Positions 3,139 to 53,128 of a stretch of DNA of 53,128 bases are shown piece after piece. Every line of letters begins with the position of its first letter. Positions within the stretch are counted from its first letter, which is position 1. A program made the translations under genes and the position numbers. The DNA lies in IMG/VR virus record IMGVR_UViG_3300043400_000014, positions 1 to 53,128 of that record; one strand, given 5' to 3'. The notes under the pieces were generated by a model. That model had not been told where the DNA came from, did not search any database, and saw nothing but the letters and a program-made list of their open reading frames with translations. Origin of the DNA: a virus.

Positions 3139-3996
3139 TTAAATTGGTCTGGGCGGCGCTTTTTCTCCTTTCCATTTTGAACTTTTCCAATCGTTCATCA
3201 ATTTCACACCGTCTGGACCGCACTTTTTAGCCAAATCGGTGATGTTTAACCACTCCCTTGAACCAGTGGTATAAACGCTTGAATCTTCGCTCATTTCATA
3301 AAACCAATCGTGAGTAGAACATGCGTCCCATAAAGTCGCCAACGGATTAATAGCGCCTTCTTGTTGAGGTTCCGTTATGTTGATATCCGCTGCAGCACGG
3401 GGCGGTTGCTGCTTCTCCTCCCTGGCGACCGCCCCACCCCCAAGCCTCAAATATCGATAGCATTTTTGAACGTACAGGGCTTGAGCCTGAGCGTCACTCA
3501 AAGCGTTGTGAGCAATTTCGGGCTTAACGGCTTCCACTTCAGGAGCCATAAATTTCATAGTTCGAACATCCAACACGTTGTAAAACTTCCAAGGGATTTC
3601 AAATCCACACCGCCGGTAAGCGTTTTCCAAAATAGGGATATCGAAACCCGCGCCGTTAGACCAGACTTTCAAATATTTCCAATCCGTAGGAAGTCGGTGA
3701 AAACGCCGACCGAATTCCTCGATTTTCTTCAACGCTTGACTAAGCAACTGCGGTTCTCGCCCAACAAGACCGGCGCGGGCGTTATCGTTTTGAGTCATCC
3801 ACCACATAATTGTACTGGCGTCAATCCGCAAACCGGCGTTGATACAAGCCTGAAGATCAACATGGATCAAAATACCTAAACTTTCGTCAATAGAATTGAA
3901 TTCGGGATTAAAAGGTTGGATACCAATCGACAAAATAGCAGCGTCACTTGCCGTGCTCATTGTTTCCAAATCAATCATTAAATGATTGTTGCTCAT
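3139..3996 (-). CDS. DnaQ-like DEDDh 3'-5' exonuclease
   Basis: N-terminal MIDLETMS (Exo I), central NGAGFD, and HNALSDAQAQA (H-x4-D, Exo III). Confidence 0.8.
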   Translation of the reverse strand: MSNNHLMIDLETMSTASDAAILSIGIQPFNPEFNSIDESLGILIHVDLQACINAGLRIDASTIMWWMTQNDNARAGLVGREPQLLSQALKKIEEFGRRFHRLPTDWKYLKVWSNGAGFDIPILENAYRRCGFEIPWKFYNVLDVRTMKFMAPEVEAVKPEIAHNALSDAQAQALYVQKCYRYLRLGGGAVAREEKQQPPRAAADINITEPQQEGAINPLATLWDACSTHDWFYEMSEDSSVYTTGSREWLNITDLAKKCGPDGVKLMNDWKSSKWKGEKAPPRPI

Positions 3997-4166
3997 ATCA
4001 GTTCCTTTTCTTTAGCCAACCATTCAGGCATCGTGACGGTTCCGTCGGTATTAATCTCAACTTGCGATTTTGGCAACCAAACTTCCCGTTCACCGTCCCA
4101 AACCATGATAGCCCGTTCGGTCGAATATCTGATTTCGACTTCGATGTCAACAAGTTTGGTCTTCAT
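3993..4166 (-). CDS. 57-aa protein, below the ORF-track cutoff
   Basis: Hand translation gives MKTKLVDIEVEIRYSTERAIMVWDGEREVWLPKSQVEINTDGTVTMPEWLAKEKELI. It has ATGA overlaps at both ends (4163..4166 and 3993..3996) and fills an otherwise empty 166-bp gap. Confidence 0.55.
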   Translation of the reverse strand: MKTKLVDIEVEIRYSTERAIMVWDGEREVWLPKSQVEINTDGTVTMPEWLAKEKELI

Positions 4167-5053
4167 TTTTTCAAAACCTTAGCCAACTTGTCAGGCGACC
4201 TGAGCGCTGCTTTCAAAGCCTCTTGCCAAGGTTCCAGGTCATCAATCTGCTCTTCCACATGTCGCAATTCGCGTTCCATGTCGTCAACCGTCATATTCTT
4301 CAAGTCGTTTTTGAACTCTCGAATAGCTGCCTCATCAACATCCCTTATCTTGCGTTCGAGCAATGTTTTCGCAAACGGGTTTGTTGAAAGTTGATGGTTC
4401 ATTACAACGATATGTCTGGCCGGGGACGTCATCAACACACTCATCAAATCCGGCGGTGAATAATTCGGACCCTTTTTGATCCGCCCCGCGCTGCTCATTT
4501 CGGGTTTACCGTCCGCACCGAGTTTAGACATATTGGACCGGTGAACTTCAGCCAGAGCCGCCAGCTTATAATGCCCCAATCCAAAAGCCAAATAGGTTCC
4601 ATCCGCCACATAAGTCATATCGGTCAAAGCGTCCAAACAAGCAACAATATCCTTTTCGATGATCGCTTCAGCCAACTCTGCCAATTCTTCCTGACAAAGT
4701 TGTAACCGGATAAGCATCAACGCGCCGCCCTCGTCACCCTGATCCAAAGCTACTTGAGCTATAAGCTTGAGATGACGGCCCCAAGAGGCGACAACCCCTT
4801 TGTATTCTTCAATCATGCGAATAGCGTATTCACCCATGAACGGCACCGCCGGATCGGTCGCAATCGGAATATCAAAAACCTTATTGAACTCCGCAACGCA
4901 ATCCAATCCCGCATCATAATAATGACCGCCAGACGGTTGAATTGAAATCCTGGTGCCGTGAGATTGAATTCGATAACCCGGCAACAAGGTCATCCCTTTA
5001 TTAATCTCATCAGCCAAATTTTTCGCAGCTTCCAGCGCGTAATCTTCATTCAT
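4163..5053 (-). CDS. MazG-like nucleoside triphosphate pyrophosphohydrolase domain protein
   Basis: Central LIRLQLCQEELAELAEAIIEKDIVACLDALTDMTYV shows the E-x2-E ... D-x2-D helix pair of all-alpha MazG/dUTPase-like NTP pyrophosphatases. Confidence 0.6.
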   Translation of the reverse strand: MNEDYALEAAKNLADEINKGMTLLPGYRIQSHGTRISIQPSGGHYYDAGLDCVAEFNKVFDIPIATDPAVPFMGEYAIRMIEEYKGVVASWGRHLKLIAQVALDQGDEGGALMLIRLQLCQEELAELAEAIIEKDIVACLDALTDMTYVADGTYLAFGLGHYKLAALAEVHRSNMSKLGADGKPEMSSAGRIKKGPNYSPPDLMSVLMTSPARHIVVMNHQLSTNPFAKTLLERKIRDVDEAAIREFKNDLKNMTVDDMERELRHVEEQIDDLEPWQEALKAALRSPDKLAKVLKK

Positions 5054-7488: not shown

Positions 7489-7898
7489 GATCGTTTGTAC
7501 TTTGCAAGAAAATTAGCAACATCGCGCGGGTGTTCGAAAACCCTGAGCGCGTGACGGGTAAGTTCCTGTTTAGTCTTTGGACCTTTCCAAAGAGCATAAA
7601 CTATTAAACCTTCGAACAATAACCACTCACTCCCAACGCGGATGAGCAGAAAACAAATCCCTCCAGCAATCCAGCGCCGATATAACCAAGCAATTTGCTC
7701 TTTCGTCGGTGGGTGAGGTAACTGGATTTGACCGTCTCGGATCGGCCAGCGGTTGGTATGTTTCAGTTCGATCCAACCTTCTTTGTAGTTGACGTCGGGC
7801 GTACCAGGATGCGCCGGGTTTTCCACCCTAACCGGGTCCAGCCGTTCTGCCATCATATAAGGTCGCAGCGCCGTCCACATACCGCTTTCATTCGACAT
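7485..7898 (-). CDS. VRR-NUC / PD-(D/E)xK nuclease
   Basis: GTPDVNY..GWIELKHT..TKEQIAWL matches the D..ExK..Q core. Start set at ATG 7898 (GAGGT 5 nt upstream). Confidence 0.6.
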   Translation of the reverse strand: MSNESGMWTALRPYMMAERLDPVRVENPAHPGTPDVNYKEGWIELKHTNRWPIRDGQIQLPHPPTKEQIAWLYRRWIAGGICFLLIRVGSEWLLFEGLIVYALWKGPKTKQELTRHALRVFEHPRDVANFLAKYKRS

Positions 7899-8307
7899 GA
7901 GTAACCTCAACCCCGCAAAGTTGAAAGATTTCCGCCGCGTCAGCAACGCTGGCAACAATCTCAGGATCGTCTCTCCAAGGTCCAGCCGGACAAACAACCT
8001 TTTTAATTCCCGCCGACGCGATAATAGGCGCGCAAGCCCGACAAGGATGATGAGTGACGTACATCGTCGCCCCGCGCGCGCCTAAACCTATTGACAGTAA
8101 CGCGCGAACTTCCGCATGAACGACGGCCTTGTATTTCTTGGAACGGTCAAACCACCATTCATTCGGAATACCGAGCGGAAAATCGTTTATTCCGCTAGAC
8201 GTCGCACCATCAACATCTACAACATCAATAATGCAACCAACTTTTGTAGATGGGTCTTTGGATACTTTCGCTATTTTTTTAGCGTATTCAAACATATAAT
8301 TGGTCAT
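7888..8307 (-). CDS. dCMP (deoxycytidylate) deaminase
   Basis: VHAEVRAL zinc motif and HHPCRACAP (PCxxC). Start set at ATG 8307 with GGGAGAA upstream. Confidence 0.85.
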   Translation of the reverse strand: MTNYMFEYAKKIAKVSKDPSTKVGCIIDVVDVDGATSSGINDFPLGIPNEWWFDRSKKYKAVVHAEVRALLSIGLGARGATMYVTHHPCRACAPIIASAGIKKVVCPAGPWRDDPEIVASVADAAEIFQLCGVEVTHVE

Positions 8308-8363
8308 TATTCTCCCTTTCTGGATGTTCACTTTATCCCCGACGATTTGCCGGGTCAACCGTA

Positions 8364-10376
8364 TTACATTGACTCGCCCCAACTTGGGCCCATTTCAACG
8401 TCAACCTTCATTGGTACGCTAAGTTGAACGACGTTTTCCATTATTTCAGCCCCCCGTCGCGCATCTTCCGGCGTCATTGAACCGTCAATTTCATCGTGAA
8501 CCTGAAGCTGAACATACAAGCCTTCATCGTCCATAGCCACAAGAGCCATTTTGGTTTGGTCTGCGGAACCGCCTTGAATTCTGCGATTAAAAGCCTTGTG
8601 TAACCAGTCAAAAGTCCCATCGTCTTTTTTGGGAAACCGACACCGGCGACCTGACAAAGTTTCGATATAACCTTGTTTTTCTGCTGTATCCTGCATATAT
8701 TGCGCCATTCGACGGACGAATGGAACCCGTTTATCAAACGTATCAGTAAGAGTTTGACCCTCTTTTCCAGCCACTTCCCAAAATCGGACCTGATAGCCGG
8801 CTTCACGTCCAGCGTTTGCCTTAGCAGCGCATTCCTCGCGCGTTTCAAAATCCCTAGACTTTCGCTGGCGACCTTGACCCCATTGAAGTCTCCAGGCCGT
8901 CGGCAAACCCAAATCGCGGCAAAGTTTAGCGCCGCCCATACCGTAAGATAGACCCAGGAATATGTTTTTGGCCGGTTTGCGTTTAATCCCTGCCATATCG
9001 GCCATCATTTGATGAAAGTCCATCGTTGGATCGTCCCGGTAACGTCTTGCCGCTTCCAACGCGCTTTCATAAGCCGCTTGTCCAATTGCTTTGGGACCGG
9101 ATTCAATCGCAGAATGAACGGCTTGTCTTGGTTCCTGCTGGCTGTAGTCGAGTGCTGCCCATTGACAACCGTCTTCAACGAAATCGGGAACATAAATCGA
9201 ACGCCACATCGGTCCGATTTCCTCATCTCGTGCAGGTTGGTTTTGAAAATTGAAATTGGCTGAACTTAGCCGCCCAAAAGCAGCGCCTTCTGTGTCGCCG
9301 CTGCCGTCATCTTTTTGCCGCCGGAGTTGGTTAAAGGTGCAGTGTGCCCGACCGTTTGTAAGATGATGCTTAACGCCGTCCACAAACGTGGATCGCAACG
9401 TGCTCATCTTTTTGGCCCGTCGTAAATGATCCGCAACTGGATGATCTATGCTGTCCAGGATCGCGCCGGTGACGCTGTCTTTCCCGGTCTTTGTTTTGGG
9501 CAGTTCAATCCCAATCTCGCGTAATACTCTGGCAACAACATTAGTATTGGTGATGTCGTGAAAACCCAAACGGTGACCCGTCAGGACTTGATTGGCTGCG
9601 TCGATAGCTAGCTGTTGTTGTTCTTTCGACCAGCGTTCAACTTGATCCAACCGATCTTGAGAAACGGCGACGCCCCGGCGACGCATTTTTACCAAAACGG
9701 GTAACACGCGACTTTCTAAATTGTAAACGCCCCACAAGTCTTGAGCCTCAATTTCGCGCTCTTGTCGCCGGAGAATAGCTAAGGGCAACCTGGCGTCTTG
9801 TTCCCCATACGGTCCAACGTGTTTAGCCGGAAGCGCCCAAATACCGCTCTTGGCGGTTTTATCCTTGTAACCGTAAGCTGAAAGCGCCTCTCTTAATAAG
9901 GTTTCGTCCTTCCCGGTTATCGACCAGCGTTCACTGATTGCTTCCATGCTGTAATTAAAATGCAACTCGTTGATTAATGGATCGGCAACTTGAATATCCC
10001 GAAACCATTTAACATTTGGAAAAACGATTTTTTCTTCAGCCAGAAAATCCAAATCATAACCGAGATTAGCCCCGCACAATATTCCATCAAATCGGGCAGC
10101 GCAATCACGAACATAATTCAAAACGGCTTCCGGGTCCATATTTCCCCCGCCGCCGTGACGGATTGGGAGATAAAAACTAGGACCATCTTCAATCGCAAAA
10201 CTGATACCAACAATATAAGCCCCCCGCCGAACGCCTGGACCTAGTTTGGTTAAAAGTTCATCCCGCGTTTCACAATCAATTCCAACGCGACCTGAACCCC
10301 AAGTGGTTGGAAGGTCCGATATTCGGGGGGCAATCCAACCACTATCGGGTTCAAAAAGCGGTAGTTGTGAATACAC
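8364..10376 (-). CDS. polA: family A DNA polymerase with 3'-5' exonuclease domain
   Basis: Exo I GIDCET; motif A LDYSQQEPR; motif B RKPAKNIFLGLSYGMG; motif C QVHDEI. GTG start with GAGGT 8 nt upstream. Confidence 0.95.
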   Translation of the reverse strand: MYSQLPLFEPDSGWIAPRISDLPTTWGSGRVGIDCETRDELLTKLGPGVRRGAYIVGISFAIEDGPSFYLPIRHGGGGNMDPEAVLNYVRDCAARFDGILCGANLGYDLDFLAEEKIVFPNVKWFRDIQVADPLINELHFNYSMEAISERWSITGKDETLLREALSAYGYKDKTAKSGIWALPAKHVGPYGEQDARLPLAILRRQEREIEAQDLWGVYNLESRVLPVLVKMRRRGVAVSQDRLDQVERWSKEQQQLAIDAANQVLTGHRLGFHDITNTNVVARVLREIGIELPKTKTGKDSVTGAILDSIDHPVADHLRRAKKMSTLRSTFVDGVKHHLTNGRAHCTFNQLRRQKDDGSGDTEGAAFGRLSSANFNFQNQPARDEEIGPMWRSIYVPDFVEDGCQWAALDYSQQEPRQAVHSAIESGPKAIGQAAYESALEAARRYRDDPTMDFHQMMADMAGIKRKPAKNIFLGLSYGMGGAKLCRDLGLPTAWRLQWGQGRQRKSRDFETREECAAKANAGREAGYQVRFWEVAGKEGQTLTDTFDKRVPFVRRMAQYMQDTAEKQGYIETLSGRRCRFPKKDDGTFDWLHKAFNRRIQGGSADQTKMALVAMDDEGLYVQLQVHDEIDGSMTPEDARRGAEIMENVVQLSVPMKVDVEMGPSWGESM

Positions 10377-10653: not shown

Positions 10654-11038
10654 CAATCCACGCCTCCAAATCTTCGATAATCTTTTCAAGGTCTTCGCGA
10701 ATTTTCCAACCATCAATCCGTTTAGTCAAATCGGCTTCAACCAAATTGAGATTAGCGTACGTAACGTAGCTGTAAAGTTTTGAACCTGAGCGCCCACTTC
10801 GCCAACCAGCTGGAACTTCAGAGGTAACGCGAACCTCGCCAAAGTGAACAGCAATCAGCTTTTTGATATAGCTTAAAGCTTTTTCAAGGTCTTTTTTACC
10901 GCCCTTATTGCGCCAGCGTCCGATATACTTGGTTGCGTTGCCTTCCAAGTATCCCAATCCGGTTTCAGCTACCCAATCCCAATGACCGTATTGGGATTGG
11001 TAATGGTCGCCGCCGACCTGTTCAACAAAAGTTCGCAT
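10637..11038 (-). CDS. DUF3310 (SaV-like) family protein
   Basis: GGDHYQ..GNATKYIGRW..KDLEKALSYIKKLI signature recalled from DUF3310 phage proteins. Confidence 0.6.
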   Translation of the reverse strand: MRTFVEQVGGDHYQSQYGHWDWVAETGLGYLEGNATKYIGRWRNKGGKKDLEKALSYIKKLIAVHFGEVRVTSEVPAGWRSGRSGSKLYSYVTYANLNLVEADLTKRIDGWKIREDLEKIIEDLEAWIDETGD

Positions 11039-11463
11039 CACTGGCTCCCAAGAAGTTCAATCAACTCATTGATTGAAGTTGCAATTTCAACGTCGGGTAA
11101 CGCTGTGAAAACGCTTTCATGTCCGACCGGCAGGTGATCGTGACCGCCCTTGGTCTCATTCATATTCAGAACTGCAATACACCGCTTGCCCAGAGCGTGC
11201 GCCATCCCGAACTCAAACCAGCGACCACCGCCCCGGTTTTCGGATGCTTGCGGTTCACCGAAAAATACCAGAGTATCAGCGCGGCGAACGTCTTCAACGT
11301 CCATAATCGCCGCTTCCTGGATCGTGCGACATTTTTCTTCAGCGTCCCAAAGCCATTGAGATGTGACTTCAAAACCTGAAGCTTGAAGTTGTTCCCCCAG
11401 TTCCCTGAGACCTTCCTTGCGCCGCGCATACCGGGCGGCCAAATAAACACTTTTAGTCTGCAT
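11038..11463 (-). CDS. nucleoside 2-deoxyribosyltransferase-like / deoxynucleotide N-glycosidase-like protein
   Basis: VYLAARY..DVEDVRRADTLVFFGE..GRWFEFGMAHALGKRCIAV matches the Rossmann-like NDT/Rcl layout. Confidence 0.55.
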   Translation of the reverse strand: MQTKSVYLAARYARRKEGLRELGEQLQASGFEVTSQWLWDAEEKCRTIQEAAIMDVEDVRRADTLVFFGEPQASENRGGGRWFEFGMAHALGKRCIAVLNMNETKGGHDHLPVGHESVFTALPDVEIATSINELIELLGSQ

Positions 11464-12601
11464 AACTCACTCCGTCATCTGATTGTTTCTTCAATGCGGC
11501 TTCCCGATTGGAAAGCCAAAGTACGGCTCCTGCTTTCCAATCGTTGTCTGCCGGCACCTGGTCCAAAATTTCACGGGCATGTAAAATCCCATCCAGCCCG
11601 CCCCGGCGTTTGTACGCACGATGCGCCATGACCATAGGACAAGCGACTTTACGCAAAAAATTTGAACGAATGCCGACTTTGGCAGGGTCTTTCAAAAATG
11701 CGTCGATATCTTGAAAAACTTCGACATGATTTCCCATGTCACTAAACATCGGCATCGCTTTCACGGCGCGGGAACCGTAAGGATCAGCACCTTCATACCA
11801 TACCGGTGGGGCTTCGCCACCGGCGTCCTGTGAAACCATCCAAGGCCAGCTTTCCCCCGCTTTCCCGAGCGTGCTTAGATAAGCGTGGAAATTGTTCGCA
11901 ACTTGCCAATAAAACCCGACCGGAACGCCGACCGCAGCGGCGATAAACTCTTGCAGTACCGAAAAATGCACTGCATTGGCACCGTAAGCGCCCCAAACCA
12001 TATCGTTTGACCGATTATACACAGTCAGGTTCAAACGCCCGTCGGTGCCAATCGTCGGCAACGCGACCAGATTGCAAGGAACGTCTTTCCCCCCGTTATC
12101 TGCCGCAGCCATATCGGTTCTTGGGTCCCACATCTGAATAACCACGCGCCGGTCATTCGGATCAGCTTTCAATCTTTGAATTGCCCAAGATATCTGATCT
12201 AGATTGGAACTACGAGTTACACTCGACCCGCCCATCGTAAACGGTTGTTCGCGGTTGACGCTCTTAAAATGATTCCGCCAGCGCCAGCCGTAAGCCCCAG
12301 GTTGCGTCTTTCCCCCATCATCGCTGAAGTTGGACATATTTTTGACGTATTCTGTCAAAGGCGCTAGGTCGTTTCGACCTGCCAGCATCCAAAGGCTTTC
12401 ATAAAGGTGAAAGAAAGGGTTTGCATCGCGACCTGGATGTAACATTACCCGTTCGGTCGGTTTAAAATAAACTGTCGATACTGGACCCGGCGCGACCAAT
12501 ACCGGACCATTTCGACTTTCGCGCTCCACTCCAATTTCTCGTAGCATTCGCGCCCCGGCCCAAAGAGCGTCGTTAACGTTCCGTGATTCAATCGTGATCA
12601 T
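11453..12601 (-). CDS. thymidylate-synthase-fold enzyme, probable dUMP hydroxymethylase
   Basis: DVPCNLVA aligns to ThyA PPCH (catalytic Cys). VYNRSNDMVWGAYGANAVHF aligns to YQRSxDxxLGxPFNIASY with the uracil-specifying Asn retained. At 382 aa it is longer than typical ThyA. It sits directly upstream of the hypermodification genes. Confidence 0.75.
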   Translation of the reverse strand: MITIESRNVNDALWAGARMLREIGVERESRNGPVLVAPGPVSTVYFKPTERVMLHPGRDANPFFHLYESLWMLAGRNDLAPLTEYVKNMSNFSDDGGKTQPGAYGWRWRNHFKSVNREQPFTMGGSSVTRSSNLDQISWAIQRLKADPNDRRVVIQMWDPRTDMAAADNGGKDVPCNLVALPTIGTDGRLNLTVYNRSNDMVWGAYGANAVHFSVLQEFIAAAVGVPVGFYWQVANNFHAYLSTLGKAGESWPWMVSQDAGGEAPPVWYEGADPYGSRAVKAMPMFSDMGNHVEVFQDIDAFLKDPAKVGIRSNFLRKVACPMVMAHRAYKRRGGLDGILHAREILDQVPADNDWKAGAVLWLSNREAALKKQSDDGVSYAD

Positions 12602-12637
12602 AAGTTTTCCTTTCCTTGGATTTCTTCGACGGGGGGC

Positions 12638-13651
12638 TCAATACCCCCGCCCCGGAACGTACTTTGCTCTTGGGCGACCTTCCTCATTCAACACGCGAAG
12701 ATATTTGTCTGTTTCGCATAAACAGTTTTGAATATCGCTCAGTTCAATTTTGGGAACCCAAGGCGCTCTATAGCGGTCCTGCGTTTCCCAAATATATCGC
12801 ATTTCATGAAGTCCCTGCTCTTGGGACAAGTTAAAGTCAAGTGGGCGACCTGCCAAGCGGTTAAGTCCGCGACGCGAACCTGGACCGAGCGCTGCCCATG
12901 TGTTGATGTCTGGAGCGTTTCGGAGATAGCGGGTATGTCGAAGGTCAACGACAACCTGATACGCCATGAACGGTCCCCAGCCGATATAATGTTTGTCCTG
13001 CAACATCCTCCAAATTGTTTGCATTTCCAATTGATCGTGGAACATATTGCGCCAATGATGACGATCCTCCCAAAGACGTCCAATTACAATTTTGGCAATG
13101 TAACTCTGTTTACTCCAAGAATACCAAGGCTTGGTTTTATCGCTTTCGGCGCGGATCATGTACGCGCCGGTATAAATCTTTACGCCTTGCTCAGAAATCG
13201 CATTCAGAGCCTGACTAAGATAATCAGGCGTAAAATCAGGATGTGAAGGCCAACATGGTAACTCATCGCTATTCGACGCCTGTATGAGACGCTGAAGCGT
13301 GTCCGGCCAGTTGATCGTCCGGGCGATGGCAAGCATCAACCAAAGGTCAGGGTGATTCGCAAAGGGTTTTCGGATATTTTGATCAATCCACACCGTTACT
13401 CGGTCGAGTTCGCGGAATACGTTACAGAAGCGATACTGCTGTAAAATTTTACTCAACGTCAACGGTCCAAAACGGTCTTCATCCACAAACCGATTTGGAT
13501 CACATTCCTCCAGGTCCGCGTCTTTTGGAGCGTATGGCCAAGGATCGCCGGGATTTTCAAATCCGCCTTCCCTTATCCATTTGCGAATATAGATTGCATG
13601 ACGTTCATTTGCCCACTGCCAAAGAAGTTGAACGTTCAAATCACTTGACAT
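12638..13651 (-). CDS. aGPT-Pplase-like (alpha-glutamyl/putrescinyl thymine pyrophosphorylase family) protein
   Basis: QQYRFCNVFRELDRVTVWI signature recalled from the aGPT-Pplase family; overlaps the downstream P-loop kinase by 11 nt. Confidence 0.6.
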   Translation of the reverse strand: MSSDLNVQLLWQWANERHAIYIRKWIREGGFENPGDPWPYAPKDADLEECDPNRFVDEDRFGPLTLSKILQQYRFCNVFRELDRVTVWIDQNIRKPFANHPDLWLMLAIARTINWPDTLQRLIQASNSDELPCWPSHPDFTPDYLSQALNAISEQGVKIYTGAYMIRAESDKTKPWYSWSKQSYIAKIVIGRLWEDRHHWRNMFHDQLEMQTIWRMLQDKHYIGWGPFMAYQVVVDLRHTRYLRNAPDINTWAALGPGSRRGLNRLAGRPLDFNLSQEQGLHEMRYIWETQDRYRAPWVPKIELSDIQNCLCETDKYLRVLNEEGRPRAKYVPGRGY

Positions 13652-14243
13652 TGATAGCCTCCATCAAGTCAGCGTAAGCGGTTTCGTGATGCAGGGTTAT
13701 GGTGCGAATACCCGCACGATCGAACTTCGAACGCGTGGCTTCAATCGCCTTGATTTTGTCGCGCACCAAATCAACTTTGATATCTCGGGCTTCCCCCTTG
13801 GCTGCGATTTGTCGAGCAGTGATCCGCTCCAAACACAATTCCAACGGCGTGTCGAGATAAGCAATCAGAACCCCGCCCGGTCCAAACCGTTTAAAGAACT
13901 CCAACCATGATCCCGCGACCGTTGAAGCCAACACTCCCTCACAAATCACATGCTTGACCGGTTCCCCCGAAAGATTGTGCCAGCCGTCCGCGACCAAAAC
14001 CGCGTCTTGTTGAAGTTCGAACGATAGAATAGTGTCCATACCGCCGCAACCCTGTTTGTACGACCCGACGGCTAAAAAGCCTCCTGGTTTTCCCCAACCT
14101 TCAACAAATCTCTGCCGGTTCGGTTCTTTCTTTGTGGGCGACGTATATTGAACCAGATCAATCGGAGTTGCGTCGGGTCCAATCAACGACCGCGCAAGAT
14201 GAGTTTTTCCAGAACCGTTTGTTCCACGAATATTGATGATCAC
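13641..14243 (-). CDS. P-loop kinase, candidate 5-hmdU DNA kinase
   Basis: Walker A GTNGSGKT at residues 7-14. GTG start with GGAG 7 nt upstream. Flanked by two aGPT-Pplase-like genes. Confidence 0.5.
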   Translation of the reverse strand: MIINIRGTNGSGKTHLARSLIGPDATPIDLVQYTSPTKKEPNRQRFVEGWGKPGGFLAVGSYKQGCGGMDTILSFELQQDAVLVADGWHNLSGEPVKHVICEGVLASTVAGSWLEFFKRFGPGGVLIAYLDTPLELCLERITARQIAAKGEARDIKVDLVRDKIKAIEATRSKFDRAGIRTITLHHETAYADLMEAINVK

Positions 14244-14269
14244 ACTTGTTCTCCTTTTCTAATTCCTCA

Positions 14270-14298
14270 ACCCTATCCCCGCCGGGGATATCAGTCAA
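14270..14298 (-). promoter_or_regulatory. sigma70-like promoter, -35 TTGACT (14293..14298), 17 nt, -10 TAGGGT (14270..14275)
   Basis: The spacer contains the perfect palindrome ATCCCCG-C-CGGGGAT (14275..14289). Confidence 0.45.
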
Positions 14299-15101
14299 GC
14301 CTTAGTGTATTGGTAAGCCGCCAGAAGGTCTTGCGCATCCCATTTAACTAATTCCGCCAAATGGTCGCGCGTATCCAAACCTATCCAATAGTGCCCCCGG
14401 CGTGCTGATTTCCATTTGCACAAAACAGTTTCAATTTCCTGGATATTGACCAACCGGGCTGAGTTCCCACCATAACCTGGAGCAAGCATTCCGCCATAAG
14501 CGTCAAGCATTTCAACGACAACTTGCTGCGTATTGGAACCCAAACCCATAATGGCCGCAGCCATTTCCGCGCCTTCTTTTGGGTCTTTGTAAAGGGTGAT
14601 CACTTCATCTGGAAAATCGATCCCGACGCCCAAAACGCGCTCAAGCATATCTGCAGCCTTGAATGCGATCCAAGGACCGAATTGCGGCCAATTCATCAAC
14701 TGATTGACGTCGTTCAATGACCGGGCAACCTCCAGCGATATCACGGCTTCCTCGGGATGACGAAAACGAGAACTGAGTGCCCAGACGCTCTCAACGCACT
14801 TTTGACCGCGCCAGTGACGACGCTCATGCGCTCTGGGCCAACGACCGCCGATTGGAGCCGGTTTTTCGTTAATTGCGGCAGTTTCCAACATGTCCCAAAA
14901 ACGAGAGCCTGAGTATTGGCTGATGTACCAACTTGCGCCGACTGAATAGCAACACCAATAAGCAAGCAGAAAACGGCGCAACCTCGCGCCCTTCACGTTC
15001 CAATGAGTCAAACCTACGTACAGCGGGTCATGATCATTGGTTAAAATGAGCTGCCGACCCCATTCAACAGGATCATCAATTCTGGGTTGGTTATCCTTCA
15101 C
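14295..15101 (-). CDS. second, divergent aGPT-Pplase-like protein
   Basis: DPLYVGL..RRFLLAYWCCYSVGASWY..AHERRHWRG resembles other aGPT-Pplase clades (recall only). GTG start with GGGAGG 7 nt upstream and a GTGA overlap with the radical SAM gene. Confidence 0.45.
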   Translation of the reverse strand: MKDNQPRIDDPVEWGRQLILTNDHDPLYVGLTHWNVKGARLRRFLLAYWCCYSVGASWYISQYSGSRFWDMLETAAINEKPAPIGGRWPRAHERRHWRGQKCVESVWALSSRFRHPEEAVISLEVARSLNDVNQLMNWPQFGPWIAFKAADMLERVLGVGIDFPDEVITLYKDPKEGAEMAAAIMGLGSNTQQVVVEMLDAYGGMLAPGYGGNSARLVNIQEIETVLCKWKSARRGHYWIGLDTRDHLAELVKWDAQDLLAAYQYTKA

Positions 15102-16510
15102 GGTTTTACCTCCCTATCATAAGCGCTTTTTCGAAAATCAGGTAATCGGTTCGCTTTTGCTGCCCCAAATACCAATGAACCACAGGCTCCCCGACCTTCC
15201 GGTGATTTGTCTCCACAACTCAAGCAGCCAGAAGGGGGACACTGTGTAACTTCGCTGAAGGGGACCGATGTATCAAACCGGGTAAACATTGGAACCCGTT
15301 GGCCATGACACTGGTCTGACGTTATAAATTTAGACCCAATCGAACGGGTTTGTTTATTTAGCAGTGCCCCGGTTTTTGGATCGCGATTGATATACTCGTA
15401 TTCATAGCAGGTGCTGTAGGTCATCCCCAACTTGGTAGCATAGGGTTGAAGGCGACGATGAGCCTCCATCCTCCAGGCTTCATCAACACACTTTTGACCT
15501 CCCATATTATCAGTAAAGAGAGATTCAAAAAACTTGCCCCGGTTTTCACCAAATCGCTTCTTGATACGTTCAACCATAGTACCGGCCCAAGCATACCCGG
15601 CTTCCACAAACTTGATAATAACATGGTTGTTTCCAACCTCTGCCAACATTTCAAACAGTTGTTCAATTTCCTCCAAAGAAGTAACGCCCGGAACAATCGG
15701 GTTTACCTGAATTGAAGTATAGATACCTTGACGCCGTAATTCCCCCACCTGGGCAATATGATCCAAAAGAGGCATAGCCCCAGGACTAAGCTTTTTCCAA
15801 TCTTCTGGATCGGAAGTATTTATCGACTTTTGGGCATAACTGTATTTATTCTTCTTGAGCAAATCAATAGCCCAACCGGGGTAACTCATCCGGCTGAGAA
15901 AGAAAATTGGCAAGCCGCGATCCACAAAAGCGTTTGCCCCTAATTCAGTGTTATGGTACACATCTTCCAAAGGTAAAAAGGGATCGGTAAAACTTGAAAA
16001 ATAACCAGCGGATGAGGTTTTCATAGTATCCAGCTGCTTGGCTACGTGAGCGCCGTAATCAACAGGAACCGTAATCAGACCGCTGCCCCGATAACCTTTC
16101 AATCCGCTGTTGATATAGCAGAAAGCGCAACCCACTGTACAAAATCCGCCGTAAGGTTCGGTCAGAATTGCGTCAGTCATGCAAGGACGTTCCCGACCGG
16201 TTCCGCCGACCAGACCTTTACCTTGATACCAACCCTGAAGGTCTTTTCCCTTTTCAAGACGAATATGAGGGGCGTAACTGCGACCGTCGAAACCGATATA
16301 AACCTTGACTTCTTTTGAAGGATCGGCCCCCCGGATCATGGCAACCCGAGCCATACGAAACTTAGCGGTTAATCCAGTAAGCGGATCGCGCTCTTCTTCA
16401 ATTGGTCCAAGAAACTCTCGCATATCAGGATCAGGACGCATGAAAAATTTATAAGCGTCTTGAGCCGGTTCGTCTGACTGCCCAAGCAGCCAATCTTGTT
16501 CATTTTGCAT
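15098..16510 (-). CDS. radical SAM enzyme (spore-photoproduct-lyase-like size), Cys-rich C-terminus
   Basis: CTVGCAFC is a CX3CX2C cluster motif. C-terminal CPPSGCLSCGDKSPEGRGACG. Start set at ATG 16510 to avoid overlapping the PLP gene. Confidence 0.85.
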   Translation of the reverse strand: MQNEQDWLLGQSDEPAQDAYKFFMRPDPDMREFLGPIEEERDPLTGLTAKFRMARVAMIRGADPSKEVKVYIGFDGRSYAPHIRLEKGKDLQGWYQGKGLVGGTGRERPCMTDAILTEPYGGFCTVGCAFCYINSGLKGYRGSGLITVPVDYGAHVAKQLDTMKTSSAGYFSSFTDPFLPLEDVYHNTELGANAFVDRGLPIFFLSRMSYPGWAIDLLKKNKYSYAQKSINTSDPEDWKKLSPGAMPLLDHIAQVGELRRQGIYTSIQVNPIVPGVTSLEEIEQLFEMLAEVGNNHVIIKFVEAGYAWAGTMVERIKKRFGENRGKFFESLFTDNMGGQKCVDEAWRMEAHRRLQPYATKLGMTYSTCYEYEYINRDPKTGALLNKQTRSIGSKFITSDQCHGQRVPMFTRFDTSVPFSEVTQCPPSGCLSCGDKSPEGRGACGSLVFGAAKANRLPDFRKSAYDREVKP

Positions 16511-16520
16511 CCTAGTTTCC

Positions 16521-17354
16521 TTATCCAATGTTCCAAAAAAGCGCTTCACGGTACTTAGCGCGACCTTCCCGCATCCACCAGCGAAAAGCTTTAAGGTCGT
16601 AGTACACGTTGCACGGCCACAAGGGATCGGGACCAGGTTTAGCTACGTCGCCATAGCTGTAACCCTCGTTAATAAATTTTATCCGGATCGCAGAAGTTTG
16701 AGCCATTTTTTCAATATACTTGTAAATTGCAGCCTCCGAACGGTCATAACCTTGATGAATAATAAATTCTCGTTCAAAGTCCCCGGCGTCGCGAAACCCC
16801 TTGATAACTCCGGCTGCAATAGTTCCGCTGCTGGCAGCTATGACCACCGGCATGTGTTTAGGTAACGGTATGGACGCGAGTGTGTACAAAACTTCCGCAG
16901 CTGTTTCGGTGATCATTTCCGGCAGTTTCAAAGCATTCGGCATCATATACGCGCCCGGATATTTTTCTTGCAGTAACTTTTTGGCCTGGTGGTATAAGAT
17001 CGCTGAACGACCGGCCTGAAGTGGAGTAATCTCAGCACCCAAGTCGTAAGCCATACATTGCTGCAACTGCCAAGCGTAATCTTCTCGGTTCCGATCTGCT
17101 TTGCGCAACGGGTAAAAATTGACCGCGCGTTTACCAAGCAATTTACAAGCTTCAGCGACGGCGTGCCCCGCCTGGCTGTGATAAGTATCGAGAACTCCGA
17201 TCACCATTTCAGGTCGGGCTTTAATATGTGAAAATACGCCACGAGTTTTACTGAATGGTGGTCCAGGCGGAAGGCAACTAAGGTCTTCACGCTTCACCAA
17301 AAGTCCAAAATTGCTCAGATAATCTTGGACGGGGGTCATTGACTGTAAGGGCAT
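16521..17354 (-). CDS. PLP-dependent enzyme, fold type II (Trp-synthase-beta / ACC-deaminase-like)
   Basis: LVKREDL....PFSKTRG places the Lys as in the KREDL..GSxKxR PLP motif. AASSGTIAAG is a glycine-rich phosphate loop. Confidence 0.6.
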   Translation of the reverse strand: MPLQSMTPVQDYLSNFGLLVKREDLSCLPPGPPFSKTRGVFSHIKARPEMVIGVLDTYHSQAGHAVAEACKLLGKRAVNFYPLRKADRNREDYAWQLQQCMAYDLGAEITPLQAGRSAILYHQAKKLLQEKYPGAYMMPNALKLPEMITETAAEVLYTLASIPLPKHMPVVIAASSGTIAAGVIKGFRDAGDFEREFIIHQGYDRSEAAIYKYIEKMAQTSAIRIKFINEGYSYGDVAKPGPDPLWPCNVYYDLKAFRWWMREGRAKYREALFWNIG

Positions 17355-18898: not shown

Positions 18899-21022
18899 TT
18901 ATGCGCAATCCCGGCGACCCGTAACCGGGTCAATTGTGCAGGATAACTCAGGTTCTTCCTTGGGTTCCGTCTTGGTTTTTCCGGTCAACAACGCCATACG
19001 TTTTCCGTCGATGTTGAAAGTCGTGCAACCTTTCGCACCACCTTCCCATGCCGACCAATACAAACCCTTGAAATCTTCCCAACTCATGGACCCGTCCATG
19101 TTACAAGTTTTTGAAACTGCTGAATCAACCCATTTTTGAGCCGTCGTCAACACTTCAACATGTTCTCGGGCCGTAACTTCAGAAGCCCGACGGCCCCGAA
19201 CGCCGAAAGTAGCAACTCCAAAATCTTCGACTTCAACAATTTCAACGCCTGTTGGAGTGTTTACCGGTCGGCTGGTAGTGTAATCAAAAACTGGCTCACA
19301 ACCGGAACTGACATTATCGGCGCACAAACTGATTGTTCCGGTCGGGGCAATCGACGTCAGATGAGAATTGCGAATACCGTGAGCCTTGATCAAGTCGCGA
19401 ACGTCGTCAGGAAGCTTTTTGATAAAAGGAGCGTCCAGATAACGTTCATCGTAAAGAGGGAATGGACCCTTTTCAGCAGCAAGCAAAGCACTGGCGCGAT
19501 AACTTTCAACTGCGATCAATTGCAAAACAGTATCAACCCAACCCAAAAACCTTTCCGAGCCATAGGGATAACCGAGCGCTTCACCAGCGTTCGCAAGACC
19601 CGTGACCCCCAGTCCCATTCGGCGCTTGGTTTCAGCTTCATATTGCTGTTGACCTAAAGGATAACGCGCACGATCCACCACGTTATCCATCGCCCGAACC
19701 ACGTGTGGAATATCGGCCTTGAGGCGATCATAATCAAAAGTCCAATGACCGGACGCCGACATGTAGACATATTGAGCCAGGTTGAATGAGCCCAACAAAC
19801 AAGCGCCGAACGGTGGAAGTGGCTGCTCACCGCAGTTGTGAACCAAAACGCCGTCATTTGTTCCAAGAGCGACAAAAAAGCGATTAAATTCATCGACGGT
19901 TCCACAATACACGTCCTCAACATAATCAAGAACTTCGACTGAAACGACCTTGTGCGGGTTCCATGCACTTGCGATGCTCATACCAGGCTGAAGTCGAGAA
20001 GCTTCCATCTGACCGCCACCGCGCAAGAAAAACATATGTTCCGGCGTACACCGAACTTGCGTTCCGTTATCGAACGAAACTTTAACAAGTTTCGCAGCCT
20101 TTTGGGTGACCCGAATATTAGTCATTGGACGATATACGGGCAAGCCTTCCCAATTTTGGGTTAGAACTGAAACTGTCTGCCCAACGAGGTCTTTAAATGC
20201 TTTGTGACCGTGTTCCGTCCAAACTTTAGTATCCCCTGTAAAACAAGGGTTAGTCGCCGCAATGGTTTCACAGTAATACAAGTTGTTGAGACGGTTGATA
20301 GTGTCGATAAATAGGACGCCAGGTTCTGCCCAATCCCAAGTTGAGCGCATGATTGCTTCCCAAAGCGCAGCGGCGTCAACTTCGCGATAAATTTCACCGC
20401 CCCAGCGAAGGAAAAACGGTTGTCGGTCGCGAACCGCAATCATAAATTCATCTGTAACTGCAATCGACAAATTGAAACCGGTAAGTTGATCCATATTTTG
20501 TTTGGCATGAAGAAATTCTTCAATGTCCGGGTGATCCACTCGCATAACGCCCATTTGAGCGCCCCGACGATGACCGGAAGATGCCACGCATTTGCAAACG
20601 GCGTCGAAAATATTCATGAACGAAATTGGACCAGACGAATGAGAATGCAACTTGCGTATGGCTGCTCCTCTTGGGCGTAATGTACTGAAATCATAACCGA
20701 TCCCGCCGCCCATCCGCATGGTAGCTGCGGCTTGCGTTGCCCGCTCCATAATGTTGCCTTCACCCTCGACAAAACTGTCTTCAATCGTTCCAGAAACGTA
20801 ACAGTTGTAAGGCGTTGTGGCCCGTGCTGCCCCCATAGCGCTTTGAATTCGACCCCCCGGCATAAATCGCAGCGATCCGGTTATTTCCCGAAACGTTTGA
20901 TAATGCTCATCACTATCGCGCAAGGCGGAAGCCACCCGGTTGTTCGCTTCCCGAAAGCTTTCTCCCTCGCCCCGGTACTTCATTGAATGAAAATATTCAC
21001 CTACTCTGGTCTTTGGTCCCAT
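18899..21022 (-). CDS. nrdJ: class II (adenosylcobalamin-type) ribonucleotide reductase, intein-containing precursor
   Basis: The extein junction restores TNP|CGEQPLPP (NPCGEQ active-site motif). Also has the NCYV finger and C-terminal KGCTTFNIDG. 707 aa including the 137-aa intein. Confidence 0.85.
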   Translation of the reverse strand: MGPKTRVGEYFHSMKYRGEGESFREANNRVASALRDSDEHYQTFREITGSLRFMPGGRIQSAMGAARATTPYNCYVSGTIEDSFVEGEGNIMERATQAAATMRMGGGIGYDFSTLRPRGAAIRKLHSHSSGPISFMNIFDAVCKCVASSGHRRGAQMGVMRVDHPDIEEFLHAKQNMDQLTGFNLSIAVTDEFMIAVRDRQPFFLRWGGEIYREVDAAALWEAIMRSTWDWAEPGVLFIDTINRLNNLYYCETIAATNPCFTGDTKVWTEHGHKAFKDLVGQTVSVLTQNWEGLPVYRPMTNIRVTQKAAKLVKVSFDNGTQVRCTPEHMFFLRGGGQMEASRLQPGMSIASAWNPHKVVSVEVLDYVEDVYCGTVDEFNRFFVALGTNDGVLVHNCGEQPLPPFGACLLGSFNLAQYVYMSASGHWTFDYDRLKADIPHVVRAMDNVVDRARYPLGQQQYEAETKRRMGLGVTGLANAGEALGYPYGSERFLGWVDTVLQLIAVESYRASALLAAEKGPFPLYDERYLDAPFIKKLPDDVRDLIKAHGIRNSHLTSIAPTGTISLCADNVSSGCEPVFDYTTSRPVNTPTGVEIVEVEDFGVATFGVRGRRASEVTAREHVEVLTTAQKWVDSAVSKTCNMDGSMSWEDFKGLYWSAWEGGAKGCTTFNIDGKRMALLTGKTKTEPKEEPELSCTIDPVTGRRDCA
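19835..20245 (-). mobile_element. 137-aa mini-intein (no homing endonuclease domain) in the nrdJ active-site motif
   Basis: Residues C260..N396. Block A CFTGDTKVW, block B TPEH, block G VLVHN followed by +1 Cys (CGEQ). Confidence 0.85.
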
Positions 21023-53001: not shown

Positions 53002-53128
53002 AAGTGATTGAAATCATCTGGAAATCTTAACTTCCCTATCTTTCTTAACTTTAAAAGGGGGGGTAGTAAATTTAGATATACACGGGGCAATATAAAGTCA
53101 GGTAAGTAAGTTAAGTAAGTTAAGATTG
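53002..53128. other. 127-nt terminal redundancy of the window (identical to 1..127 and to 26114..26240), indicating circular closure of the assembly
   Basis: Base-by-base identity. 127 nt is a common maximum k-mer for de Bruijn assemblers, so this is most likely an assembly overlap and not a physical terminal repeat. Confidence 0.85.

Follow-up and report, generated by a model that had tools for sequence, protein, structure and literature searches.

A predicted 5-NedU pathway of the phage M6 type in a complete Pam3-like metagenomic phage genome

A row of six genes at positions 11453–17354 of the viral contig IMGVR_UViG_3300043400_000014 (53,128 bp, analysed at its full length and called here the window) raises the question of which modified base it would place in the DNA of its phage, and whether the two divergent alpha-glutamyl/putrescinyl thymine pyrophosphorylase-like (aGPT-Pplase-like) proteins that it codes for imply a chemistry of their own. 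An earlier note on this DNA had recognized a thymidine-hypermodification cassette with an enzyme set like that of phage M6. It held that the two pyrophosphorylases set the cassette apart from M6, that they hinted at two appended groups or an undescribed chemistry, and that the final base could not be predicted. The likeness to M6 is borne out by one-to-one homologues in that phage. The distinction is not: the cassette is a further copy of the characterised M6 gene set, of which the pair of pyrophosphorylase-like proteins is a standard feature. By analogy with the M6 enzymes, it very likely specifies an M6-type pathway that would convert part of the phage thymidines to 5-(2-aminoethyl)-2'-deoxyuridine (5-NedU).

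The six genes and their counterparts in other phages

Families were assigned by profile searches (Pfam, PHROG, NCBIfam), the Pfam scores being judged against the family cutoffs. All six open reading frames (ORFs) are minus-strand genes whose coordinates agree exactly with those of the earlier note, and each has a profile match to the family claimed for it. The row begins with the gene of a predicted pyridoxal phosphate (PLP) decarboxylase of fold type II (PALP), homologous to M6 gp52 (16521–17354; PALP 2.8e-8, phrog_7093 1.1e-75). It is followed by the genes of a predicted radical SAM isomerase, homologous to gp53 (15098–16510, longest ORF to 16549; phrog_9252 4.5e-208), and of an ADDT protein (formerly aGPT-Pplase2), homologous to gp51 and predicted to be a glycine:5-phosphomethyl-2'-deoxyuridine (5-PmdU) transferase (14295–15101; PF18724 2.6e-20). 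Next come the genes of a P-loop 5-hydroxymethyl-2'-deoxyuridine (5-hmdU) DNA kinase, homologous to gp54 (13641–14243; PF18748 1e-8, 35.3 bits for a cutoff of 27), of an HMUDK_hel or aGPT-Pplase clade 1 protein, homologous to gp55 (12638–13651; PF18723 3.5e-45), and of a thymidylate synthase (TS)-superfamily protein, homologous to M6 gp58 and YuA gp17 and predicted to be a dUMP hydroxymethylase (11453–12601; PF00303 2.7e-20, phrog_5131 1.4e-114). Both ORFs singled out as pyrophosphorylase-like, 12638–13651 and 14295–15101, match aGPT-Pplase families. Of the eight proteins scanned with NCBIfam, five were left without a family, and the radical SAM enzyme and the kinase had weak matches far under the cutoffs.

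The short motifs on which the assignments had been based are in place: DVPCNLVA at residue 173 and YNRSND...GANAVHF at 195–213 of the TS-like protein, GTNGSGKT at residue 7 of the kinase, FSKTRG at residue 34 of the PLP enzyme, and CTVGCAFC at residue 137 of the radical SAM enzyme together with a carboxyl-terminal Cx4Cx2Cx10C from 437. The cassette motif YRFCNVFRELDRVT was confirmed at residue 73. Translational coupling, proposed for all six genes, fits three of the five junctions, which overlap or nearly touch (radical SAM/ADDT with a 4-nt overlap, kinase/HMUDK_hel with an 11-nt overlap, PLP/radical SAM 10 nt apart if the radical SAM gene starts at 16510), but not the other two, where 51 nt (ADDT/kinase) and 36 nt (HMUDK_hel/TS) separate the genes. 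The start of the radical SAM gene is probably the ATG at 16510, giving 470 residues, because a 470-aa gene is called on a Logan contig that has an identical copy of the cassette (DNA_pol_A being called there as well) and because the protein so delimited fits the alignment to RHph_I65. The row extends beyond the TS-like gene, which overlaps by 11 nt a 141-aa Nuc_deoxyrib_tr-like gene (11038–11463).

The homologues in M6 (gp51–gp55 and gp58; Lee et al. 2018 PNAS, Lee et al. 2021 NAR) are 34–63% identical, and the cassette is flanked, as in M6 and YuA, by genes for ribonucleotide reductase (RNR) and family A DNA polymerase (PolA). Between these two genes YuA codes for ADDT (gp10), PALP (gp11), radical SAM enzyme (gp12), HMUDK (gp13), HMUDK_hel (gp14), Nmad5 (gp15) and a TS-like protein (gp17). 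The window shares the seven-family logic of M6 minus one family. It is without Nmad5 (gp56), its ADDT gene lies between the radical SAM and kinase genes whereas that of M6 is upstream of the PLP gene, and its Nuc_deoxyrib_tr-like gene replaces the HD hydrolase gene (gp59); these differences are minor. Its backbone resembles that of the myophage Pam3, not that of a Yuavirus. The arrangement of the cassette recurs in Pam3 itself (ON014755, genes 43–52), whose order is the same (PLP, radical SAM, aGPT-Pplase2, kinase, aGPT-Pplase1, (Nmad5), TS) and whose GenBank record already names both pyrophosphorylases, while the Pam3 genome paper (PMC9382816) mentions neither hypermodification nor the cassette genes. 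Unlike the window, Pam3 has an inserted HNH endonuclease gene and small ORFs, and codes for Nmad5 and an HD 5'-deoxynucleotidase. The gene order is shared by the Rhizobium phages RHph_I65, I72 and TM26 as well. The structural modules of Pam3 and of these phages are related to that of the window, and the cassette proteins of Pam3 and RHph_I65 are 54–83% identical to those of the window. The RHph_I65 region examined differs by an inserted polynucleotide kinase (PNK)/phosphatase gene and small ORFs. Contigs of IMG/VR with M6-like clusters were already called "likely to make 5-NedU" by Lee et al. in 2021, who described a modular, combinatorial gene pool (PMC8989533).

A related system is the cluster for 5-acetylaminomethyl-2'-deoxyuridine (5-AcNmdU) of PaMx11 (gp46–gp49), which has in common with the window the kinase, a glycine-transferring ADDT (8z2m) and a clade-1 homologue (34%). 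PaMx11 tailors N-alpha-glycinylthymidine (N-alpha-GlyT) by a flavin adenine dinucleotide (FAD)-dependent lyase and an acetyltransferase (PMC8989533), whereas the window has the radical SAM and PLP enzymes instead. The flanking ORFs scanned have no match to either PaMx11 tailoring enzyme, and the six cassette ORFs fall to other families. A sister contig with the same Pam3-like backbone, L012 (IMGVR_UViG_3300034072_000552), carries the order ADDT-kinase-HMUDK_hel-TS with neither a radical SAM nor a PLP gene, and L019, L030 and L031 are probably alike. Directly upstream of its ADDT gene L012 codes for an FAD-dependent oxidoreductase (4160–5035), which is the PaMx11-type tailoring module. On this myophage-like backbone, then, one tailoring module (radical SAM plus PLP) is exchanged for the other (FAD), the same difference that separates M6 from PaMx11.

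The predicted route to 5-NedU

The M6 pathway has been reconstituted. Gp54 phosphorylates 5-hmdU in DNA, gp51 adds glycine to yield N-alpha-GlyT (315 u), the radical SAM enzyme gp53 (~9 Fe per protein) isomerises N-alpha-GlyT, and decarboxylation of the isomer by gp52 yields 5-NedU (271 u) (PMC8989533), which is the base identified in M6 virion DNA (PMC5889632). Because the four post-replicative enzymes of the window are homologous to these characterised M6 enzymes, and the glycine pocket of its transferase is intact, its product can be predicted as 5-NedU; to leave the final base open was too cautious.

In a sequence search of the PDB the window ADDT retrieves the glycinyltransferase gp46 of PaMx11 (8z2m, 7.5e-50) and the Pplase2 of YuA (25qc, 8.2e-48), the latter being 97% identical to its M6 counterpart. 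The glycine pocket of YuA Pplase2, as defined by its crystal structure, is made of D24, E96, K159, K248, Y257 and D262, and a diamine transferase becomes a glycine transferase when Lys and Tyr are introduced at the positions of K248 and Y257 (PMC13458397). Nine key positions of the window protein (D25, E93, K148, E224, T225, C228, K229, Y238 and D243) are identical to YuA. In the alignment, the six pocket residues, the catalytic C247 and the two metal ligands, E243 and T244 (YuA numbering), are invariant in the window, Pam3 and RHph_I65. Overall identity by blastp is 36% to M6 gp51, 58% to Pam3, where the homologue is labelled aGPT-Pplase2 in GenBank, and 59% to RHph_I65.

The two tailoring enzymes are closer to those of M6. 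The radical SAM protein is 63% identical to gp53 (458 aa), 67% to the Pam3 protein and 83% to EVC13_002 of RHph_I65. Its cysteines are invariant both in the CxxxCxxC motif (C124/C128/C131) and near the carboxyl terminus (C424/C429/C432/C443; 470-aa numbering), and these seven residues fit the two 4Fe-4S clusters reported for M6 gp53. The PLP enzyme is 52% identical to M6 gp52 and 65% to Pam3 gp43, with no RHph_I65 match within the region fetched; Lys36 of its PFSKTRG motif is invariant among the window, M6 and Pam3 proteins. The generic Pfam models score both proteins low, at 19.2 bits (under the cutoff) for Radical_SAM over 15098–16549 and 33.9 bits for PALP over 16521–17354, slightly short of its cutoff of 35. 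Sequence searches of the PDB with the two enzymes gave nothing useful.

The TS-like protein has as best PDB sequence match the CMP 5-hydroxymethylase MilA (8.4e-18), the best thymidylate synthase being at 2.7e-10. Its catalytic Cys is aligned with that of MilA, and the Asn of GANAVHF stands opposite the MilA Asp at the pyrimidine-specifying position. In thymidylate synthases and dCMP hydroxymethylases, Asn at this position specifies uracil and Asp specifies cytosine. The claim that a uracil-specifying Asn is retained therefore stands. None of the NCBIfam thymidylate synthase equivalogs is reached (best 73.3 bits for a cutoff of 174.55; the others 39–58 bits for cutoffs of 108–405). Identity is 44% to M6 gp58, 57% to the Pam3 protein and 62% to that of RHph_I65, and in YuA the homologue carries the annotation "putative deoxyuridylate hydroxymethyltransferase". 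The protein is thus a predicted dUMP hydroxymethylase that would make 5-hmdUMP, an activity proposed from these sequence relationships.

The proposed pathway would start before replication with a dCMP deaminase that supplies dUMP and the TS-like enzyme that hydroxymethylates it to 5-hmdUMP, after which kinases of the host and the family A polymerase of the phage would place 5-hmdU in DNA. The steps after replication are modelled on M6. The P-loop kinase would convert 5-hmdU in DNA to 5-PmdU. ADDT would then flip the base out and attack it through Cys228, so that the phosphate is expelled and an exocyclic methylene is left, to which ADDT would add the alpha-amine of glycine to give N-alpha-GlyT. 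This would be converted by the radical SAM enzyme to C-alpha-glycinylthymidine and, in the last step, by the PLP enzyme to 5-NedU and CO2. The gene of the HMUDK_hel protein (gp55 family) is a conserved partner of the kinase gene, and the protein can be dispensed with for glycine transfer in M6 lysates.

The kinase, the clade-1 protein and the alternative readings

The kinase is 34% identical to M6 gp54, 62% to Pam3 gp49 and 54% to the RHph_I65 protein. Its Walker A motif, GTNGSGKT, is conserved and the lysine is invariant with M6. The clade-1 protein scores 155 bits with PF18723 (cutoff 25), covering positions 26–278 of the 281 of the model. Homologues of this family carry the GenBank label aGPT-Pplase1, while its current Pfam name is HMUDK_hel, "5-hmdU DNA kinase, helical domain". 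The protein is 52% identical to M6 gp55, 57% to the Pam3 "aGPT-Pplase1" and 60% to the RHph_I65 homologue. It is also widespread: tblastn finds it in 134 phage records, including M6 (ORF055, 52%), PhiW-14 (gp72, 27.5%), PaMx11 (34%) and Dickeya phages, and at E <= 1e-5 the search of a large protein database yields 3,428 relatives, with PF18723 in every one of the 120 matches listed. Many of the relatives are on contigs of ~51–55 kb.

Gene order associates the clade-1 protein with the kinase. A survey of neighbourhoods covered 79 IMG/VR loci recovered with the clade-1 protein, and in 66 of the 76 that have upstream sequence a kinase gene is directly upstream of the clade-1 gene. Two main orders are found among the 79 loci, ADDT-PLP-rSAM-KIN-HEL-(Nmad5)-TS-HD (M6 type; rSAM, radical SAM; KIN, kinase; HEL, HMUDK_hel) and PLP-rSAM-ADDT-KIN-HEL-(Nmad5)-TS-(HD or Nuc_deoxyrib_tr) (window and Pam3 type), with L009 and L069 sharing the order of the window. 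The position of ADDT shifts across the loci while the kinase-HMUDK_hel pair stays together. In about ten more distant loci (L058, L070, L072, L074, L078–L082; 31–52% identity), TS and HD genes come after the clade-1 gene, but the 1.2 kb upstream of it show neither a kinase match nor a Walker A motif. Either the pair is broken up there or the kinase has diverged beyond detection. Kinase and aG/PT-PPlase-like domain are fused in a single protein, gp186, of phage SP10 (Lee 2018 Table 3, PMC5889632). The conserved adjacency, the Pfam name and this fusion together suggest that the clade-1 protein is a partner of the kinase. In M6 lysates gp55 was included in the mix yet was dispensable, gp54 and gp51 being sufficient for glycine transfer to the 315 u product (PMC8989533).

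Other features leave room for a catalytic role. The clade-1 protein is very well conserved, with invariant residues that include C312, E313, D315 and K316 and the FCNVFRELDRVT block. Its AlphaFold2 model is all-alpha (pLDDT 90.5) and has no Foldseek match in the PDB below E = 1; there are faint resemblances to 7ugk, a queuine salvage enzyme (TM 0.33), and to 7ou3, an AGOG glycosylase, and Pplase2 (8z2m) is not among the best 50 of 78 matches with E up to 10. The PDB sequence search found no relative either, its only match being at E 0.76. Since an invariant Cys-Glu pair occurs in a confident all-helical model without a solved structural relative, the clade-1 protein may itself be an enzyme and not a passive helical partner of the kinase, a possible but doubtful reading based on conservation and a structural model. 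It could, for instance, turn the share of 5-PmdU that is not hypermodified into thymidine, or set which 5-hmdU sites are modified; Lee et al. stated in 2018 that it is unknown how these phages get from 5-hmdU to thymidine (PMC5889632). Such a role would belong to the family at large and not to this locus. The gap that the locus touches, namely the role of a widely conserved clade-1 "Pplase" usually coded just downstream of the kinase, is likewise a family-wide question. Homology between the clade-1 protein and ADDT is not claimed: hhalign of the two alignments is not significant (E 0.2), the sole aligned stretch being DIQNCLCE on IQEVETVLCK.

How far, then, do these data favour 5-NedU over other outcomes? 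Several points weigh against it. The case for the product is built from homology and the contig is metagenomic; the transferase and the kinase have only 34–36% identity to their M6 counterparts; donor specificity is read from the pocket residues of one structural study; and whether the TS-like protein is a hydroxymethylase or a methylase goes beyond what its sequence tells. Moreover, the Pfam Radical_SAM and PALP scores are just below the gathering cutoffs (the YuA PALP score is likewise near the cutoff), the Nmad5 gene of M6, YuA and Pam3 is absent, the HD hydrolase of the relatives is replaced by a deoxyribosyltransferase-like gene, and the HMUDK_hel protein is without an assigned place in the 5-NedU pathway. 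The first alternative is a different thymidine hypermodification, resulting from an ADDT that takes another donor than glycine or from a pathway that ends or forks at some other intermediate. Such an outcome is conceivable with an ADDT only 36% identical to gp51, from a Pplase2 family whose donors differ (glycine, serine, putrescine, 1,3-diaminopropane) even inside one similarity cluster, with Nmad5 missing and with the FAD oxidoreductase module of L012 on the same backbone. It is nevertheless unlikely, given that the six glycine-pocket residues, including the two positions that switch specificity, are identical to YuA, and that the radical SAM (63%) and PLP (52%) enzymes, both of which act on glycine-derived intermediates in M6, are among the best conserved proteins of the cassette.

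That the two pyrophosphorylase-like proteins append different groups, or act stepwise in an undescribed chemistry, so that the cassette would be functionally unlike that of M6, is less probable still. The idea draws on the high conservation of the clade-1 protein, its invariant Cys312-Glu313, the resemblance of DIQNCLCE to the ADDT motif IQEIETVLCK, and the fact that a clade-1 activity is nowhere defined in the literature searched on these pathways. It is countered by the occurrence of the same pair in M6 and YuA (ADDT gp51/gp10 and HMUDK_hel gp55/gp14), Pam3, PhiW-14 and ViI, so that the pair does not distinguish the window cassette. Lee 2018 Table 3 lists two aG/PT-PPlases each for PhiW-14 (gp72, gp109), ViI (gp160, gp247) and M6 (gp51, gp55) (PMC5889632), and the SN1 genome paper reports aGPT-Pplase1 and aGPT-Pplase2 both in an M6-like cassette. 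Furthermore, 5-NedU is the sole hypermodified base named for M6 virion DNA in the literature searched, gp55 is dispensable for N-alpha-GlyT formation in lysates (PMC8989533), Pfam files the clade-1 family as the helical domain of the kinase, a kinase and an aG/PT-PPlase-like domain are fused in SP10 gp186, and profile-profile and fold searches give no significant link between clade 1 and ADDT. An ordinary thymidylate synthase, with neighbours that do not modify the thymidines of the phage itself, would agree with the Thymidylat_synt match in Pfam and with "thymidylate synthase" as the PHROG annotation. This reading is hardly credible for a protein that scores 39–73 bits where the NCBIfam equivalogs demand 108–405, whose best PDB relative is a hydroxymethylase (MilA), which shares homology and synteny with the annotated dUMP hydroxymethyltransferase of M6/YuA, and whose gene adjoins those of a 5-hmdU-specific kinase and transferase.

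The genome and its nucleotide-metabolism genes

The window is a JGI metagenome contig with a GC content of ~48% and a 127-bp exact direct repeat at both ends (1–127 and 53002–53128), and is therefore a complete, circularly assembled genome of ~53,001 bp (~53.0 kb). Its long ORFs are nearly all on the minus strand and the cumulative GC skew drops monotonically. The structural and replication modules have ~66–68% nucleotide identity to the Rhizobium phages RHph_I65/TM26/I72 and the Pseudanabaena phage Pam3, and proteins like Pam3 gp32, gp33 and gp34 are encoded. It is thus a complete Pam3/RHph_I65-like metagenomic phage genome. An origin from a host genome or a prophage was rejected on the basis of the terminal repeat, the coding on one strand and the Pam3-like structural genes. 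The outcome is one more complete metagenomic Pam3-like phage genome predicted to carry 5-NedU, a prediction of use to anyone who cuts, clones or sequences such DNA; its importance beyond correct annotation is small.

The genes around the cassette, all on the minus strand, code for a plausible nucleotide-supply set. The dCMP deaminase (7888–8382; PF00383 4.9e-15; 41% identity to M6 gp65) likely supplies dUMP to the hydroxymethylase, by analogy with the dapT pathway model (PMC13458397). The family A DNA polymerase (8364–10376; 57% identity to YuA gp21) is presumed, also by analogy, to incorporate 5-hmdUTP. Downstream of the polymerase gene lie those of a MazG/PRA-PH-like pyrophosphohydrolase (4163–5053) and an Rv2179c-like 3'-5' exoribonuclease (3139–3996). 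A possible dTTP/dUTP-clearing activity of the MazG-like enzyme, together with dCMP deaminase, would fit a rewiring of the nucleotide pool, and with RNR and PolA these proteins would complete the set.

The nucleoside 2-deoxyribosyltransferase-like gene (11038–11463; PF05014 8.4e-7, 29.6 bits for a cutoff of 28.8) occupies the slot of the HD-domain 5'-deoxynucleotidase gene in M6 (gp59), Pam3 (gp53) and most IMG/VR relatives. A homologue is absent from the M6, Pam3 and RHph_I65 regions examined, and the same swap is found in four IMG/VR loci (L012, L019, L021 and L022). It looks like a non-orthologous replacement of the HD hydrolase, possibly clearing competing dNMPs or serving as a nucleotide-pool accessory. 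Nmad5 (M6 gp56, YuA gp15, Pam3 gp51) gave no tblastn or hidden Markov model match in the six frames of the whole window (E > 1). Some IMG/VR relatives have the gene and many lack it, whichever of the two gene orders they follow (L001, L003 and L004 being named among the relatives), and this patchy occurrence makes it an optional accessory, not a defining feature of the cluster. A requirement for it is not reported in the M6-pathway literature searched.

The RNR gene (class I/II-type, 18899–21022, minus strand) carries a mini-intein, with Intein_splicing and Hint matches at residues ~256–362. The insert lies at ~19835–20242, and the YuA RNR aligns as two blocks around these ~136 residues. The RNR of L012 has 584 residues compared with 707 in the window, and its domain match is continuous.

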